Origin: Escherichia phage Ecwhy_1
Strand: one strand, 5' to 3'
Length of the DNA stretch: 64,000 nt
Sequence record: MH791411.1
Shown: positions 228 to 55,087 of the stretch, piece by piece
Layout of the letters: every line of letters starts with the position of its first letter
Position numbering within the stretch: the first letter of the stretch is position 1
Notes under the pieces: model-generated
The model's database searches: none
What the model was told of the DNA's origin: nothing
The model's input: the letters and a program-made list of their open reading frames with translations, nothing else
Program-made: the position numbers and the translations under genes

Positions 228-260
228 TTTAGACAAGAAAAATGCCCCGAAGGTCGGGGC
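228..260 (-). terminator. intrinsic terminator hairpin (GCCCCGA/TCGGGGC stem) followed by T-run on minus strand
   Basis: inverted repeat at 244-260, minus-strand RNA continues AUUUUUCUUG; lies after the stop of 373..924. Confidence 0.5.
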
Positions 261-372
261 AGTACGAAAAAGATTTTGTACAAAAAAGGGGAATAATACA
301 ATAAAATAATAACGCATCATTATTATGTAAGGGAGGAAAGTAACATGATAATGTTAACCATTACTGGTATAA

Positions 373-1411: not shown

Positions 1412-1606
1412 TTATTCCTTATATAGATTGCTAAAGTTACGAAGATTACGGTTTGCTTTAAACTGTTTTAAATCACCAAATCTATCATCAACGATAAAAG
1501 TGGCAGCCTGTTTTGATTGGCATATTGTACAAATCAACATACCCTGTATTGTATACTCGGTTGAACAATTTGTACAGTACTTTTTTTCATAAAGTTCAGT
1601 ACTCAT
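1412..1606 (-). CDS. small Cys-rich protein, putative zinc-binding (CxxC...CxxC)
   Basis: 64-aa ORF with CTNC and CTIC pairs; tightly packed with neighbours. Confidence 0.4.
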   Translation of the reverse strand: MSTELYEKKYCTNCSTEYTIQGMLICTICQSKQAATFIVDDRFGDLKQFKANRNLRNFSNLYKE

Positions 1607-1938
1607 AAAACCTTCACATCAGTACGTTTATCTCTTTCTTCTTTCTTTACCTCATCGGAGCGGGTATCTTCTAATTGTAACACAACTTCTTTCAGAATGT
1701 CAACATCAATCATTGCTTCTTTGTATTGAAAGTCGTTTACGCCGAAAATATACTTCAATGCAACCCATACACGTTTGTACCATTTTAAGAAAGGATTCAA
1801 ACGCATACTCACCAGACATTGACCAAGTTTATCATCTCCATGTTCTTGTGTCAAGTCAAATTGTGAAATGTGAACACAATGTTCCGTATTATCGCCACAA
1901 CTACAACGCACTATAAATTCTTTGCTGTCTTTGCTCAT
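1603..1938 (-). CDS. hypothetical protein (111 aa), Cys-rich N-terminus
   Basis: ORF track; CSCG...HC motif; overlaps neighbours by 4 nt. Confidence 0.4.
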   Translation of the reverse strand: MSKDSKEFIVRCSCGDNTEHCVHISQFDLTQEHGDDKLGQCLVSMRLNPFLKWYKRVWVALKYIFGVNDFQYKEAMIDVDILKEVVLQLEDTRSDEVKKEERDKRTDVKVL

Positions 1939-2357
1939 ACTGGATAAGCCTTCATAAATTGTTTTAGAACTCCAAACTTAGAAGCACTGTAATCATACTG
2001 ATAACTTAGCTCACGTTTATCATTCATTCGATAAACCATATGATTGTTTGGATAACCTATTCTAACAGGTTTGTTAGGATTTGCAAGCAAAATTGCCCAT
2101 TCTTTTACAGGAAAAACGTTTTCAGATAACATCTTCACATCTTTACTGTAATACTTCATTGCTTGGGTACAGTGCTTGTAATCTTCAGCACTCAGTTCTT
2201 CACACACAACACTGTGTGTTTCAGTACTGGATACCCATGACTCTTCTTCATAATATAAGTCAATTACATCTTCTACGGTATAGCTATCAGGTAAATCATA
2301 ATATACCCAATTACTAAAACCAGAGCTTACACCAACTCGAATTCGATAGTACTTCAT
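1935..2357 (-). CDS. hypothetical protein (140 aa)
   Basis: ORF track; 4-nt overlap with flanking genes. Confidence 0.45.
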   Translation of the reverse strand: MKYYRIRVGVSSGFSNWVYYDLPDSYTVEDVIDLYYEEESWVSSTETHSVVCEELSAEDYKHCTQAMKYYSKDVKMLSENVFPVKEWAILLANPNKPVRIGYPNNHMVYRMNDKRELSYQYDYSASKFGVLKQFMKAYPV

Positions 2358-2599
2358 ATTTTTTTATCATCCGATTTTACATAATAGTAACATACAATGC
2401 AGTGAATTACAAGAAGAATAATTTCTACTACATTCAGTGCCACAACATGCCCTTGCGGGACCGTAAGTGACAATAACAACATTATAGTAGGTATTACGAA
2501 TATTGTCAATGTTTTTTTCATTTTATTTCCTTGTGGGACCATAAGTGACAATAACAACATTATAGTAGGTATTACGAATAATGTCCATGTTTTTTTCAT
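2354..2599 (-). CDS. small hydrophobic protein containing an in-frame 26-codon tandem duplication
   Basis: MKKTWTLFVIPTIMLLLSLMVPQG followed immediately by MKKTLTIFVIPTIMLLLSLTVPQG; matches the 78-bp DNA tandem repeat. Confidence 0.35.
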   Translation of the reverse strand: MKKTWTLFVIPTIMLLLSLMVPQGNKMKKTLTIFVIPTIMLLLSLTVPQGHVVALNVVEIILLVIHCIVCYYYVKSDDKKI

Positions 2600-2608
2600 T
2601 TTATTTCC
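2452..2608. repeat. tandem direct repeat, two copies of about 78 bp, near-identical by eye
   Basis: copy 1 about 2452-2530 and copy 2 about 2531-2608 share ...gggacc(g/a)taagtgacaataacaacattatagtaggtattacgaata(t/a)tgtc(a/c)atgtttttttcattttatttcc. Confidence 0.8.
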
Positions 2609-2832
2609 TTAATGTAGGCAAATGGTAAAAATACAACCTCTACCCCAGGAAATGCAGTTGCGAGTGCATCAACTATAGATTTGTTTTTATTACATTGCCA
2701 TACTTTTGTAACTTTGTGCTGGAATACCTTGCCATCTTTTACTAACCAATACATTTGCATTTTAACAGTACTGTTATCAGATGGTATTAGTAAATCTTCC
2801 ATATCATATGAATTAAAGATTCTCTCGTTCAT
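2596..2832 (-). CDS. hypothetical protein (78 aa)
   Basis: ORF track. Confidence 0.4.
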   Translation of the reverse strand: MNERIFNSYDMEDLLIPSDNSTVKMQMYWLVKDGKVFQHKVTKVWQCNKNKSIVDALATAFPGVEVVFLPFAYIKEIK

Positions 2833-3091
2833 ATAATCTCCTAGTGAAAAAAGCCAGATTCTTTCTTATATATTCGGCGACACAATCAGTAGTTTGTGTA
2901 TTTGTGAATGCAACAACTTCATTCGATACACCATTCCCATTACACAATGGACAAATCCCCATATACTTAGGTGTTGGAACTGTATCTAGTTTATATTTCC
3001 CTGAAGATATCATGTATTGTTGTGGTAATACATCCAAAGAAATAATATAATCTTCATCGAATTGCTTACAACATACCCAACATTTACTCAT
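2813..3091 (-). CDS. small zinc-finger-like protein (CWVCC ... CPLCNG)
   Basis: two Cys pairs in a 92-aa ORF. Confidence 0.4.
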   Translation of the reverse strand: MSKCWVCCKQFDEDYIISLDVLPQQYMISSGKYKLDTVPTPKYMGICPLCNGNGVSNEVVAFTNTQTTDCVAEYIRKNLAFFTRRLYERENL

Positions 3092-3575
3092 TGTGGTTCT
3101 CCTTCAAAACAATTCTTATATCTTCGAATGTTTTAACAAACCAGTCATGTTCATCAGATACATCAACCACCTTCCCACCATAAACATAGTAATGATAGAA
3201 GGGTAACTTACTTTTCCTCAATCGTTCAGCAAGTTCTGGGTTTTGAAATATCTTAGCACATATTGCATCCTGGATACAAGAAATGCATTCGGGTGTCATT
3301 TCAATACGGTCGTGCATATACTTGTTCGCCGCTGCTTTTGCAGCAGCACCCGACACTTTTCTAAGATCATCATGTTTCTGGCCTGTTAAAAACCAAAAAT
3401 AAAAAGTTTCTACCGATGGGAACCAACCGTATGGTTCTAAGGTAAAACTATGTGACGAAAAGTTAGATAGATCCCTACCTAACTTAGTTTTAGCTTTACT
3501 ATAGATATTAATGTGTCTGTATCCGTCATCAGTAGGGTCAATATAGTTAAATGACTCTTCAGGAAATTCAAACAT
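3084..3575 (-). CDS. NADAR/YbiA-like domain protein
   Basis: motifs resembling E. coli YbiA as recalled from memory: SNF...W.S.E..F...K...AAKAAANKY...NPELAERL. Confidence 0.4.
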   Translation of the reverse strand: MFEFPEESFNYIDPTDDGYRHINIYSKAKTKLGRDLSNFSSHSFTLEPYGWFPSVETFYFWFLTGQKHDDLRKVSGAAAKAAANKYMHDRIEMTPECISCIQDAICAKIFQNPELAERLRKSKLPFYHYYVYGGKVVDVSDEHDWFVKTFEDIRIVLKENHNE

Positions 3576-5089: not shown

Positions 5090-5136
5090 AATAAATCCTA
5101 TAGAAAATGGGAGTACAATGTACTCCCAGATTTAGA

Positions 5137-7524: not shown

Positions 7525-7553
7525 ATTATATTGAAAACGCCCTCTTGTGTCAA
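7525..7553 (-). promoter_or_regulatory. sigma70-type promoter, consensus TTGACA-N17-TATAAT on minus strand
   Basis: minus-strand TTGACA = rc(7548-7553), 17-nt spacer, TATAAT = rc(7525-7530); 50 nt upstream of the ATG at 7475; embedded in an imperfect palindrome. Confidence 0.45.
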
Positions 7554-7556
7554 CTA

Positions 7557-8774
7557 TTACTTGTTAGCTTTTTCAGCAATTTCACGAAGAGTATCTTCGA
7601 GTTCATGAGAGAGTTTTGCGATTTCAATCTTAGCACGCTCACGCTCTTCTTTACCTTTCTTCTCTTCAATCAGTACTGCTTCGATGCTATCGATCATTGT
7701 TTTGTGTACATTACGCAATGTTTTAATATCCACGATACCACGATTATTTGCTTTAGCAGCATCCAACATGTTAGTTGCTACCATTTTAGAGTTTACTTCG
7801 AGTAAACGGTTAGTTTCATTGTCAATCAGATTACCCAACTCATTGTCTTTACGTTGACGTTCGGAAATCAACTGTTCAGCCAATTGTGATTTCCATGCTG
7901 GAATAACAACTGATTTCAAATCCTCAAACTTAGAAACAGTGTTGAGGTTTACTTTCTTCATACTCATCAGGCGAGGACCGCTCAGTTCACACATCATGAT
8001 AAGACGACGAATCTTATCTTCCTGTTTAGAAAGAGCTTCACAAATCATCTTTTGCTCCTGGATTGCAAAAGAATCAACGTCAGGGTTCGCTTGCATTGCT
8101 ACCAATTCAGCATCTTGTGCTTTGGTAACTTCTTCCAACTCAACTAACGTATCACGCAGTTCAAAGAGATAGTTTTTGTTTTCGTTGTAAGCAGTGTCTA
8201 GCCATGCACATTCCCCATGCTGGCGGTTAATACCAACCTGAAGAGTGTTCATGATTTCATCAATTTGTTCTTTACTGTTTTTGTACTGATCGCCAACTTT
8301 CTGTTTAGCATTAACAAAAAGTTTTTTGACCCAGCCTACGATTGATTTATCATCCTGTAGACTATCAATATCAACTGCACGAGTCAATGTCAAGATAGTA
8401 GTAATAGACTTACCGAATTCGGTATTATCATCAGTGACGTTAACTTTTGACATGATTTCATCAGCCAAACGTCCTACACCTGCCCCAGCGGTGGTTCCGA
8501 TGGTATTAATATTCTGCACAGTTAACGCCATACTGTTGCCTTTAGTATCTTTCAGTACTGGAAGTGACTTGGACTGTTGTTCGAAGATATCAGTTGCGTC
8601 AATTGTGTGTGCTGCTGTTTTGGTAGTACGTTTGGCAGTTTTGGTTGCTTTGGCTTGTTTAACTGTTGCTTTTTTCGGATTGATTTCTTTCTCGGACATT
8701 GTGTATTCCTCAGTTAATTTAAGATAGTGTTGCTCAGTGATAAACATTCTACAGGCAACACTCAGTACTGTCAA
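7557..8774 (-). CDS. hypothetical coiled-coil protein, weak resemblance to TelA/toxic-anion-resistance family
   Basis: about 400 aa, Lys/Thr/Ala-rich N-terminus then long helical/coiled-coil stretches; true start probably the internal MSEKEINPKK near 8699. Confidence 0.3.
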   Translation of the reverse strand: MTVLSVACRMFITEQHYLKLTEEYTMSEKEINPKKATVKQAKATKTAKRTTKTAAHTIDATDIFEQQSKSLPVLKDTKGNSMALTVQNINTIGTTAGAGVGRLADEIMSKVNVTDDNTEFGKSITTILTLTRAVDIDSLQDDKSIVGWVKKLFVNAKQKVGDQYKNSKEQIDEIMNTLQVGINRQHGECAWLDTAYNENKNYLFELRDTLVELEEVTKAQDAELVAMQANPDVDSFAIQEQKMICEALSKQEDKIRRLIMMCELSGPRLMSMKKVNLNTVSKFEDLKSVVIPAWKSQLAEQLISERQRKDNELGNLIDNETNRLLEVNSKMVATNMLDAAKANNRGIVDIKTLRNVHKTMIDSIEAVLIEEKKGKEERERAKIEIAKLSHELEDTLREIAEKANK

Positions 8775-9910: not shown

Positions 9911-9990
9911 TACTAACCTCTTAATTAATTAAAATTGATACGATACGTACATTCTACATACACACGATGTATTTGTCAAACCATTTTTTA

Positions 9991-14819: not shown

Positions 14820-14828
14820 ATTATATCA
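14820..14828 (-). promoter_or_regulatory. extended -10 element TGATATAAT (minus strand)
   Basis: rc of 14820-14828 = TGATATAAT in the 63-nt gap upstream of the ATG at 14774. Confidence 0.35.
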
Positions 14829-14837
14829 CATGTTTTT

Positions 14838-15356
14838 CTACCATTTCAAAAATTCATTTACATCTAGTTTATACTTCAAAGAATCAACCATATGCAAATC
14901 AATCAGGAACAAACAATACGAAGCCACTGAACTACCACGCCCAAGACCCCAAAAAATATTGTGCTCTTCCATATAATCAACTAACCAGATCATACATCTT
15001 AAAAGCTTAGTCATGTTGTAATGTTCAAACAAATCAATCTCATACATTACACGTTCACGGGCTTCATCCGATGTACATTTCTGTAAAAAGTACTCACGCA
15101 AGTTGATGTTATCGTACACTGGATCATAACGCCATAGTTCATGGTTTTTATCATGTTCTATTGTATAATCCAGCATACGCTGTTCTAAACCAAATTTTTT
15201 ACAATTATCGTTAAATTTCAATCGTTCCGGTTCATCAATCTCCTGTAGCTGTAAGTACTGAATATCTGCACCACAGTTGATTGCATACACGACTGCATTA
15301 AGGTTACATTTTACATCACCATTGGGACTTATAAATCTGTTTCCTTGTACTTTCAT
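14838..15356 (-). CDS. family-C DNA polymerase (Pol III alpha/DnaE-type) palm, N-terminal fragment ending before the catalytic DxD
   Basis: YEIDLFEHYNMTKLLRCMIWLVDYMEEHNIFWGLGRGSSVASYCLFLIDLHMVDSLKYKLDVNEFLKW aligns by eye to DnaE ...ELDVIIQMGFPGYFLIV...[36 protein letters not shown]. Confidence 0.55.
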   Translation of the reverse strand: MKVQGNRFISPNGDVKCNLNAVVYAINCGADIQYLQLQEIDEPERLKFNDNCKKFGLEQRMLDYTIEHDKNHELWRYDPVYDNINLREYFLQKCTSDEARERVMYEIDLFEHYNMTKLLRCMIWLVDYMEEHNIFWGLGRGSSVASYCLFLIDLHMVDSLKYKLDVNEFLKW

Positions 15357-25678: not shown

Positions 25679-25747
25679 GTAATAAAAGCTCCGATATGGT
25701 TTTAATGTTTAATTCGATAGTAATTATAGCTAAGAACTAATGTTCTG

Positions 25748-25942
25748 TCAAGCACTATCATTATGTTTTTTAATTGCTTCACAGATTGCTTGAACTTGCA
25801 CTAGATAAGTTTTAGCAAACTCTGCTTGAGTACGCACGCGTGGATTTGGTGCATCTTTGATCATAAGTTCTAAGTCATAAACTACTTTATCGAAAACACC
25901 CTTGTCTTCAATAATACGATCATAAAAGGTTTTGTCAGTCAT
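25748..25942 (-). CDS. hypothetical protein (64 aa)
   Basis: ORF track. Confidence 0.35.
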   Translation of the reverse strand: MTDKTFYDRIIEDKGVFDKVVYDLELMIKDAPNPRVRTQAEFAKTYLVQVQAICEAIKKHNDSA

Positions 25943-54019: not shown

Positions 54020-55087
54020 TTACTTACCTTGTTGTTTCAAACGAGCAACTAGTGCAGATGCAGAAAGTTGTTCTTTTGGAGCTTCAGCTACTGGTGCTGG
54101 TGCAGCAGCTACTGGTTCAGCAGCAGGAGTAGGAGTAGCTACTGGTGCTTGCGGAGCAGGAGTTTGTGCAGGAGCAGGTTGTTGTACTGGAGCTTGTGGA
54201 GCAGGTTTGTTTTCACTAATAGTACCAGTTGTTGGTTTTTGTACACCTGCTGGACGGTAAGCGAAAGCCCAACGTGCAGGGTCATAAGGTTTACCATCAA
54301 CAGATGCTTCGAACATTTCTTCGATAGCTTTTAGTTCTTCTGGAGTTGGTTGTTTTGGCATAAAATCATTTAGATTATATAGACCAAACTTTTCAATCGC
54401 TGCCAGTTCTTCTTCATTGAGTGGACGCTCGGACATGGAGAATTGAGACATGTCATAGCTATTGTAACCACCACCATTCTTAGTTTTAACAATACCAAAG
54501 TCACGACCGTGAATGTAGTGAGTTGGTAGTTCTTTGATGCCTGGGTTTAGCAGGATAGATTTAACTTTATCAAAGATATCTTTGTTAGCTAGGATACGAC
54601 GGATTGGGTTTTCTGGAGCAATATCGTCTTTTACTGCTACGCTATCAGGAGCAACGAAACATTGCATTAGATAGGTTTTCTTTTTCCAGTAACGACCAGC
54701 CATTGCTTTCAGTTCTTCGTTTCCAGTTTCATTCGCACTTTGGAACCATTGACGTACTTCTTTAAGAATTGGACATGATTTAGGAACCCACATTTCGTTA
54801 CATGGTACTTGAACGGTAACTTTATCGGTGTGCATACCAACAATACCTTGGAACGTTAGGTTGATCATATCACGTTCACGCCAGAAGAATGGGTTAGACT
54901 CATCAGCATCTGGTAGAAAACGTAGGTTTAGTGGTTCATTGTAAGGGACATTCCAGAAAGCTAGGAAAGAATCGGCTTTACGTTCACCTGTAAATGTACC
55001 ATTCTTCTGTGCTTCTGCTTTTTCTTGTTCAGCTTTTAGTTTTGCACGAATTTCAGCTAGAGTTTGCATATTGGGCTTCCTTGTCAT
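54020..55087 (-). CDS. 32: single-stranded DNA-binding protein, gp32-like, with Pro/Ala/Gln-rich C-terminal tail
   Basis: Cys/His zinc site pattern (PCNEMW...CPILKEV...), ELKAMAGRYWKKKTY as in the T4 gp32 core; C-terminus PAPQAPVQQPAPAQTPAPQAPVATPTPAAEPVAAAPAPVAEAP. Confidence 0.75.
   Translation of the reverse strand: MTRKPNMQTLAEIRAKLKAEQEKAEAQKNGTFTGERKADSFLAFWNVPYNEPLNLRFLPDADESNPFFWRERDMINLTFQGIVGMHTDKVTVQVPCNEMWVPKSCPILKEVRQWFQSANETGNEELKAMAGRYWKKKTYLMQCFVAPDSVAVKDDIAPENPIRRILANKDIFDKVKSILLNPGIKELPTHYIHGRDFGIVKTKNGGGYNSYDMSQFSMSERPLNEEELAAIEKFGLYNLNDFMPKQPTPEELKAIEEMFEASVDGKPYDPARWAFAYRPAGVQKPTTGTISENKPAPQAPVQQPAPAQTPAPQAPVATPTPAAEPVAAAPAPVAEAPKEQLSASALVARLKQQGK

Follow-up and report, generated by a model that had tools for sequence, protein, structure and literature searches.

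The beginning of a small membrane-protein gene is present twice in Escherichia phage Ecwhy_1, and the question raised by this locus is whether the doubling alters the protein, its transcription, or neither. The locus lies near one end of a 64,000-nucleotide stretch of sequence record MH791411.1, hereafter referred to as the window. According to Tandem Repeats Finder, the array extends over 2451..2610 with a period of 78, 2.1 copies, 95% matches, and a score of 292. It is the sole repeat in the window with a period greater than 21, and an identical pair of 78-nt copies was recovered in a second repeat search. Two short imperfect tandem repeats, both GC-rich for the genome, are found near each other at 54085..54126 (21 bp x 2) and 54153..54193 (18 bp x 2.3), and they may encode a repetitive Ala/Gly-rich protein segment.

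Provided in Table 1 are the coordinates of the relevant features. When read along the minus strand, which is the coding strand, the two copies differ at 4 of 78 positions, and the preliminary description of a near-perfect 78-bp tandem duplication thus holds. The copies are arranged head to tail without a spacer such that the start-to-start distance of 78 equals the unit length, and the match extends four bases past the end of copy 2 (AAGG, 2454..2451). Each unit starts with AAGGAAATAAAATG, which comprises a Shine-Dalgarno sequence, a 6-nt spacer, and an ATG, and continues with seven adenines and the code for a hydrophobic helix. The peptide encoded by copy 1 is MKKTWTLFVIPTIMLLLSLMVPQG, and that encoded by copy 2 is MKKTLTIFVIPTIMLLLSLTVPQG. 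One difference between the copies is synonymous, and the other three change amino acids (W5/L, L7/I, and M20/T). The claim that the same peptide is encoded twice is thus correct with respect to the number of peptide copies and not with respect to their exact sequence. Both copies are indeed in frame within an ORF of 81 amino acid residues (2354..2599, minus strand), and the second supplies another in-frame start with a ribosome-binding site of its own, as had been described.

Table 1 Features of the duplicated locus and promoter-like sites in the window
Feature	Coordinates	Strand	Remarks
Copy 1 of the 78-bp unit	2533..2610	-	Final four codons and stop of the upstream gene, Shine-Dalgarno sequence, ATG, A7, first-helix code
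Copy 1 signals	AAGGA 2610..2606; ATG 2599..2597; A7 run 2596..2590	-	Shine-Dalgarno sequence, start codon, and A run
Copy 2 of the 78-bp unit	2455..2532	-	Encodes the ancestral gene's first membrane helix
Copy 2 signals	AAGGA 2532..2528; ATG 2521..2519; A7 run 2518..2512	-	Shine-Dalgarno sequence, start codon, and A run
AAGG microhomology	2451..2454	-	Marks the duplication junction
Copy-1 A run	2590..2596	-	A7 in Ecwhy_1, A6 in the six other carriers
81-aa ORF, Ecwhy1_83 (QAY00364.1)	2354..2599	-	Three hydrophobic segments; in frame only in Ecwhy_1
55-aa ORF beginning at the second ATG	2354..2521	-	Counterpart of the Asteriusvirus two-helix membrane protein 121Q gp76
Upstream 78-aa gene, phrog_13902	2596..2832	-	TGA stop overlaps the first ATG (ATGA)
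Downstream 140-aa gene, phrog_15599	1935..2357	-	First gene that predicted P2-started transcripts would serve
P1, promoter-like site in copy 1	2559..2587	-	TGGACA-17-TATAAT, 11/12 match to consensus
P2, promoter-like site in copy 2	2481..2509	-	TTGACA-17-TATAAT, 12/12 match to consensus
Other strong promoter-like sites (examples)	25751..25723; 7553..7525; 9979..9951; 8774..8746; 14849..14820	-	

Distribution and origin of the two-copy allele

The matches to this region are all from jumbo phages of ~350-385 kb belonging to the genus Asteriusvirus, with identities of 99.8% to Escherichia phage BF17 and 76% to phage 121Q. In an exact protein look-up, the 81-aa ORF corresponds to Ecwhy1_83 of Ecwhy_1. 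Ecwhy_1 is itself an Asteriusvirus jumbo phage, and the T4-like setting assumed in the preliminary description was mistaken. Base-level alignment reveals two copies of the unit in BF17, EC.P1, fEgEco12, and WPEC5, and a single copy in WPEC3, vB_Ec-M-J, Turkey3, CMSTMSU, TH47, ph0011, and 121Q; the single-copy state was verified base by base in 11 genomes. Note that the CMSTMSU record (MH494197.1) is labeled UNVERIFIED and displays in this region several one- and two-base indels relative to all of its relatives, mostly in homopolymers. These break ORFs and probably reflect sequence quality.

Copy number was surveyed more widely by a sensitive blastn search of all phage records with 2400..2680 as the query. 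The match spans 280 bp, corresponding to two copies, in 4 of the 34 related records and 163-203 bp, corresponding to one copy, in the other 30. All but one of these 30 span about 200-203 bp, the exception being A4, which aligns to part of the query only. Two further two-copy contigs were found in independent metagenome assemblies (NCBI GCA_022711855.1 and ENA ERZ27268735), both built with k=141, such that the allele is represented by seven independent sequences including that of Ecwhy_1. No additional carriers were uncovered by junction-specific pattern scans of IMG/VR, the JGI metagenomes, and the GTDB genomes, or by megablast searches against E. coli genomes and plasmids. Only one or two copies were seen among the sequences compared, and never three. 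The suggestion of a region prone to copy-number change is borne out insofar as close relatives differ by one versus two copies, but the locus is not hypervariable, with one two-copy allele observed in seven sequences.

Since seven independent sequences carry the duplication, it must be regarded as real. A true genome with a single copy, misassembled in Ecwhy_1, is scarcely credible: the general risk that attends repeats is all that speaks for it, whereas six other independent assemblies, the two k=141 metagenome contigs among them, have the same two-copy structure, and the two copies have diverged from each other.

The junction is identical in all seven carriers, as are, in essence, the differences between their two copies, and a single origin is thereby indicated. 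The one-copy state is considered ancestral because it is found in 30 of the 34 related phage records; in all lineages the single-copy gene encodes a protein of 51-58 residues, such as 121Q gp76. In the single-copy phages WPEC3, vB_Ec-M-J, Turkey3, and TH47, the sequence AAGG both opens the unit and directly follows its end, and this bounding microhomology points to slippage or illegitimate recombination as the source of the second copy. The array is thus a genuine, inherited, and polymorphic micro-duplication of a known mechanistic kind. Tandem duplications between short direct repeats are reportedly found in the ampC region of E. coli and in the rII region of phage T4, where they are said to arise by slipped mispairing or illegitimate recombination. 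The Ecwhy_1 locus resembles these in its head-to-tail copies without a spacer, in the 4-bp AAGG at the single-copy borders, and in the coexistence of single- and two-copy alleles in close relatives. It differs from them in that the unit is only 78 bp, is intragenic, preserves the frame, and carries translation signals together with a putative promoter.

One single-copy sequence merits separate description. The allele referred to here as L016 (ENA ERZ27303200, metagenome contig k141_109448, 340..530) has one copy of the unit with both of the copy-2-type bases, in TTG(ACA) and CCG. It could have arisen through a precise loss of copy 1, with recombination inside the initial 24 identical bases, or it could be a parental allele. 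The same allele also displays an H40N change. Dating of the duplication from the two copy-specific differences was rejected because the single copy in L016 has the copy-2 bases.

The flanking polymorphisms are mosaic. WPEC5, with two copies, groups with one-copy phages at positions 1909, 2187, and 2217, and WPEC3, with one copy, groups with Ecwhy_1 and BF17 at flanking SNPs. The two-copy allele thus sits in a recombining population, and the pattern in WPEC3 and WPEC5 points to recombination no more than about 250 bp away from the repeat. These two phages, with one and two copies, respectively, share both their hospital wastewater source and their host strain.

Reading frame and the small membrane protein

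In six of the seven two-copy carriers, the ATG of copy 1 is followed by six adenines, and the first start is consequently out of frame. It opens an eight-codon stub in these A6 carriers (MKKHGQYS), which is shortened to four codons in fEgEco12 and, as read from the alignment, in the two-copy sequence L017. The 55-aa protein in the A6 carriers is given by the second start only. The working gene start is therefore that of the downstream copy, and the upstream copy is a coding relic. The dual-start ORF is, as far as the compared sequences indicate, peculiar to Ecwhy_1 and not general to the allele. An effect of the duplication on the protein, as initially proposed, is accordingly retained for Ecwhy_1, in which the frame is open, and not for the other six carriers. 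Because the upstream start is usually out of frame, gene calls differ across records, with the locus annotated variously as 55, 68, 77, or 81 residues. For the purposes of annotation, the 81-, 77-, and 68-aa calls represent one locus, the conserved product of which is the 55-aa protein.

Three differences, all in copy 1, are private to Ecwhy_1 when compared with the six other carriers, namely those at positions 2541 and 2581 and the extra adenine. Relative to BF17, 3 of 78 bases differ within copy 1 and 1 of 1723 outside of it (Fisher p = 3e-4). This clustering may have been caused by selection, by a conversion tract, or by errors in the repeat of a single assembly. Polarization of A6 versus A7 by means of a flank tree, with A7 either retained or regained, was abandoned given that the flanking SNPs are mosaic. 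Also rejected was an internal GTG start after the unit-end AAGGG, which would yield a 29-aa peptide consisting solely of helix 2; neither the AAGG nor the GTG is conserved in ph0011 or 121Q.

The 55-aa form is characterized by two hydrophobic stretches parted by P-Q-G-H and by Lys-rich ends. In its AlphaFold model (mean pLDDT of 83), the helices are delineated by residues 2-20 and 23-54. The conserved polar residues of helix 2 fall between positions 30 and 44. Of these, E33, C41, and C44 do not vary among the six proteins aligned, and N30 and H40 each have a substitution in a single protein. The H-C-x-x-C pattern, lying as it does in a membrane helix, could serve in metal binding or redox chemistry. 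In the 81-aa form, a third hydrophobic segment is present, together with a Lys-rich linking loop (NKMKK). By the positive-inside rule, this loop would remain cytoplasmic, and the Lys-rich N-terminus would thereby be forced across the membrane.

No Pfam hit was obtained for the 55-aa form, and neither form has a hit in PHROG. The sole Pfam match for the 81-aa form, to RseC/MucC (PF04246), scores 20.0 bits against a cut-off of 24.4 bits; it was rejected and probably reflects generic hydrophobic-helix similarity. A profile search of 1.84 billion representative proteins returned three matches, which argues for an orphan family confined to Asteriusvirus. By tblastn, the protein is found in 36 phage records, all of Escherichia or Salmonella jumbo phages. 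Like the T4 exclusion proteins Imm and Sp, it is very small, has two hydrophobic helices, and is encoded among early-type genes. Unlike them, it has a conserved N/E/H-C-x-x-C pattern in helix 2, and it is without sequence relationship to a known family. The exclusion or membrane-targeting role raised in the preliminary description is speculation.

With regard to the neighboring genes on the minus strand, the 163-aa gene at 3084..3575 (phrog_652) is listed in phage Turkey3 as encoding a NADAR-domain protein. The 92-aa protein encoded by 2813..3091 contains one C-x-x-C near its N-terminus and another in mid-protein. It is labeled "DNA primase/helicase" in fEgEco12, which looks doubtful in light of its small size.

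Promoter-like sites embedded in the unit

Each copy of the unit contains a sequence resembling a sigma-70 promoter, with an A-rich stretch upstream of the -35 hexamer, a feature that the preliminary description overlooked. Within the window there are 17 sites that match the consensus at 11 or more of 12 positions, every one of them on the minus (coding) strand, with the plus strand having none, versus 4.5 ± 2.0 expected for both strands together under a first-order Markov null. Perfect 12/12 sites number three, versus 0.17 expected. Eight of the 17 touch the non-coding 8.8% of the window, and an ATG follows five of these eight at a distance of about 40-50 nt. The remaining nine are fully intragenic, as compared with 1.08 ± 1.28 when the codon order is shuffled within ORFs, which suggests that this jumbo phage has many intragenic early promoters. 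Taken together, the enrichment and the strand bias argue for a real class of signals.

Such a class would fit what has been reported for these phages. The genus reportedly encodes a phage sigma factor, and no phage RNA polymerase has been reported for it (PMC7247149, PMC13070987). Also in agreement with a sigma-70-type class of sites, the RpoD-like promoters predicted in CBB, a related jumbo phage, are concentrated among early genes that are short and hypothetical (PMC5259590). Targeted literature searches for transcription data on Asteriusvirus yielded none. From the sequence evidence, the embedded sites are probably active sigma-70-type promoters.

The conservation of the site was examined in an alignment of the small gene from nine genomes, in which 40% of the coding columns are invariant. 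By length, the heptamer TATAATG (gene nucleotides 36-42) ranks among the top two invariant runs. Indeed, codon 12 varies among ACT, ATT, GCT, GTT, and CTT, yet it always keeps the T with which the hexamer begins. Third positions are invariant at 8 of 52 codons, three of them in the TATAATG block, a result of only modest significance because T-ending codons are common in this AT-rich genome. The divergent phages A4, JNE01, and Turkey5 have a perfect TTGACA-17-TATAAT at the corresponding position. Copy 1 retains its hexamers in each of the seven carriers, although the changes are too few to demonstrate selection; in fEgEco12 and L017 the copy-1 site has a perfect TTGACA.

The predicted transcript start for P2 is near 2474, inside the small ORF, and the next gene start downstream of it is the ATG at 2357. 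P1 is predicted to start transcription near 2552, which places about 31 nt ahead of the ATG at 2521, and the resulting leader would include the Shine-Dalgarno sequence of copy 2. The predicted fold of this leader RNA is not significant (z = -1.0) and speaks neither for nor against the proposal. An Rfam scan of 1500..3500 gave no match. From the terminator-like hairpin at 5128..5108 to the small gene, no other site reaches a match of 11/12. This hairpin has a 9-bp stem, reads as a terminator on both strands (5108..5128), and separates two blocks of minus-strand genes.

Tandem sigma-70 promoters are well known, as are T4-type early promoters embedded in upstream coding sequence. The sites described here are similar to these in their consensus or near-consensus hexamers, 17-bp spacer, and A-rich upstream stretch, and, as with phage early promoters, they are oriented with the genes in a block of short hypothetical genes. 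They are different in that the predicted promoter lies within the 5' portion of the same gene that had its start duplicated. With such an arrangement, duplication would turn an internal promoter into an upstream one.

Possible consequences of the duplication

The explanation that we favor, and that we consider somewhat more probable than not, is that of an inherited, one-time microhomology duplication in which the downstream start does the work and the main effect is regulatory, by way of the copied embedded promoter. According to this explanation, a single slippage or illegitimate recombination event between two AAGG microhomologies would have duplicated the ribosome-binding site, start codon, and first membrane helix of the conserved 55-aa gene along with the promoter embedded in them. 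In single-copy phages, the predicted transcript start falls about 47 nt downstream of the ATG of the small gene, and the promoter would thus serve only the genes that follow, namely that for the 140-aa protein (1935..2357), that for a 111-aa "virion structural protein," and those onward to a terminator-like hairpin at 261..243. After the duplication, P1 would transcribe the intact 55-aa gene with a leader of about 31 nt, and the downstream genes would be served by two tandem promoters 78 bp apart. Given that no further strong site lies between the upstream hairpin and the small gene, the change in its transcription could be substantial. The arrangement of the locus, its distribution over genomes, the frameshift, and the motif's enrichment and conservation are established by the sequences, whereas promoter activity, the transcript starts, and the selective value of the allele are all things that we infer from them. 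Two observations count against a regulatory effect: most of the genus is without the allele, and the single-copy L016 has a perfect -35 hexamer.

The duplication may also be neutral, a harmless product of slippage that drifts and recombines in a subpopulation, with the motif inactive or its doubling of no measurable effect. We regard this as a serious minority possibility. It would explain why 30 of 34 related phage records are without the allele and why six of seven carriers have a decayed upstream coding copy, and it is consistent with L016, whose copy-2-type sequence could represent a precise loss of copy 1, and with the mosaic flanks, which suggest that the allele moves by recombination without an obvious sweep. 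On the other hand, the motif class is strand-biased, enriched, and conserved in the genus and is thus probably active, and a doubled active promoter in front of a complete ORF should alter expression. The occurrence of the allele on different flanking haplotypes and in samples from several countries further implies that it is at least not strongly deleterious. A more ambitious version of the regulatory explanation, which we hold to be unlikely, is an adaptive rewiring of transcription in which the H-C-x-x-C protein gains its own promoter, the operon promoter is doubled, and the three-helix isoform of Ecwhy_1, made possible by a single-base change in the A run that reopened the upstream start, is under selection.

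Still less probable, in our estimation, is that the 81-aa, three-segment protein of Ecwhy_1 functions as a new isoform beside the 55-aa form. Its ORF is in frame and annotated as a gene in Ecwhy_1, the first ATG retains both its Shine-Dalgarno sequence and the ATGA overlap with the upstream gene, and the private changes (A7, I7L, and T20M), all in copy 1, could reflect selection. The same homopolymer difference and clustered in-repeat changes could, however, stem from errors of sequencing or polishing in one assembly, and the first start is out of frame in six of seven carriers. Moreover, the extra helix would force the Lys-rich N-terminus across the membrane, and the long form has no homologue save for differently called starts on the same allele. 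A regulatory effect is thus better supported by the sequences than is an effect on the protein. That the locus is a switch of the contingency type, with the length of the A run toggling the long isoform and with frequent gain and loss of copies, appears very improbable. In its favor are the A6/A7 polymorphism of copy 1, the shared wastewater and host of one-copy WPEC3 and two-copy WPEC5, the resemblance of L016 to a precise loss of copy 1, and indications in fEgEco12 and L017 that the two copies have exchanged sequence. A run of 6-7 adenines is short for high-frequency slippage, however, and there is a single A7 genome among the seven carriers and no three-copy genome. In addition, WPEC3 and WPEC5 differ at flanking SNPs, and they are thus separate lineages rather than switch variants.

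The finding is a modest one. If the regulatory explanation is correct, the locus would provide a clean natural example of a tiny in-frame duplication that alters regulation rather than protein sequence. Both the ancestral and the derived alleles are present in culturable phages, WPEC3 and WPEC5, respectively, and the effect is thus directly testable. Beyond this locus, the analysis brings to light a set of strong sigma-70-type sites, many of them intragenic, in the early-type region of Asteriusvirus jumbo phages.
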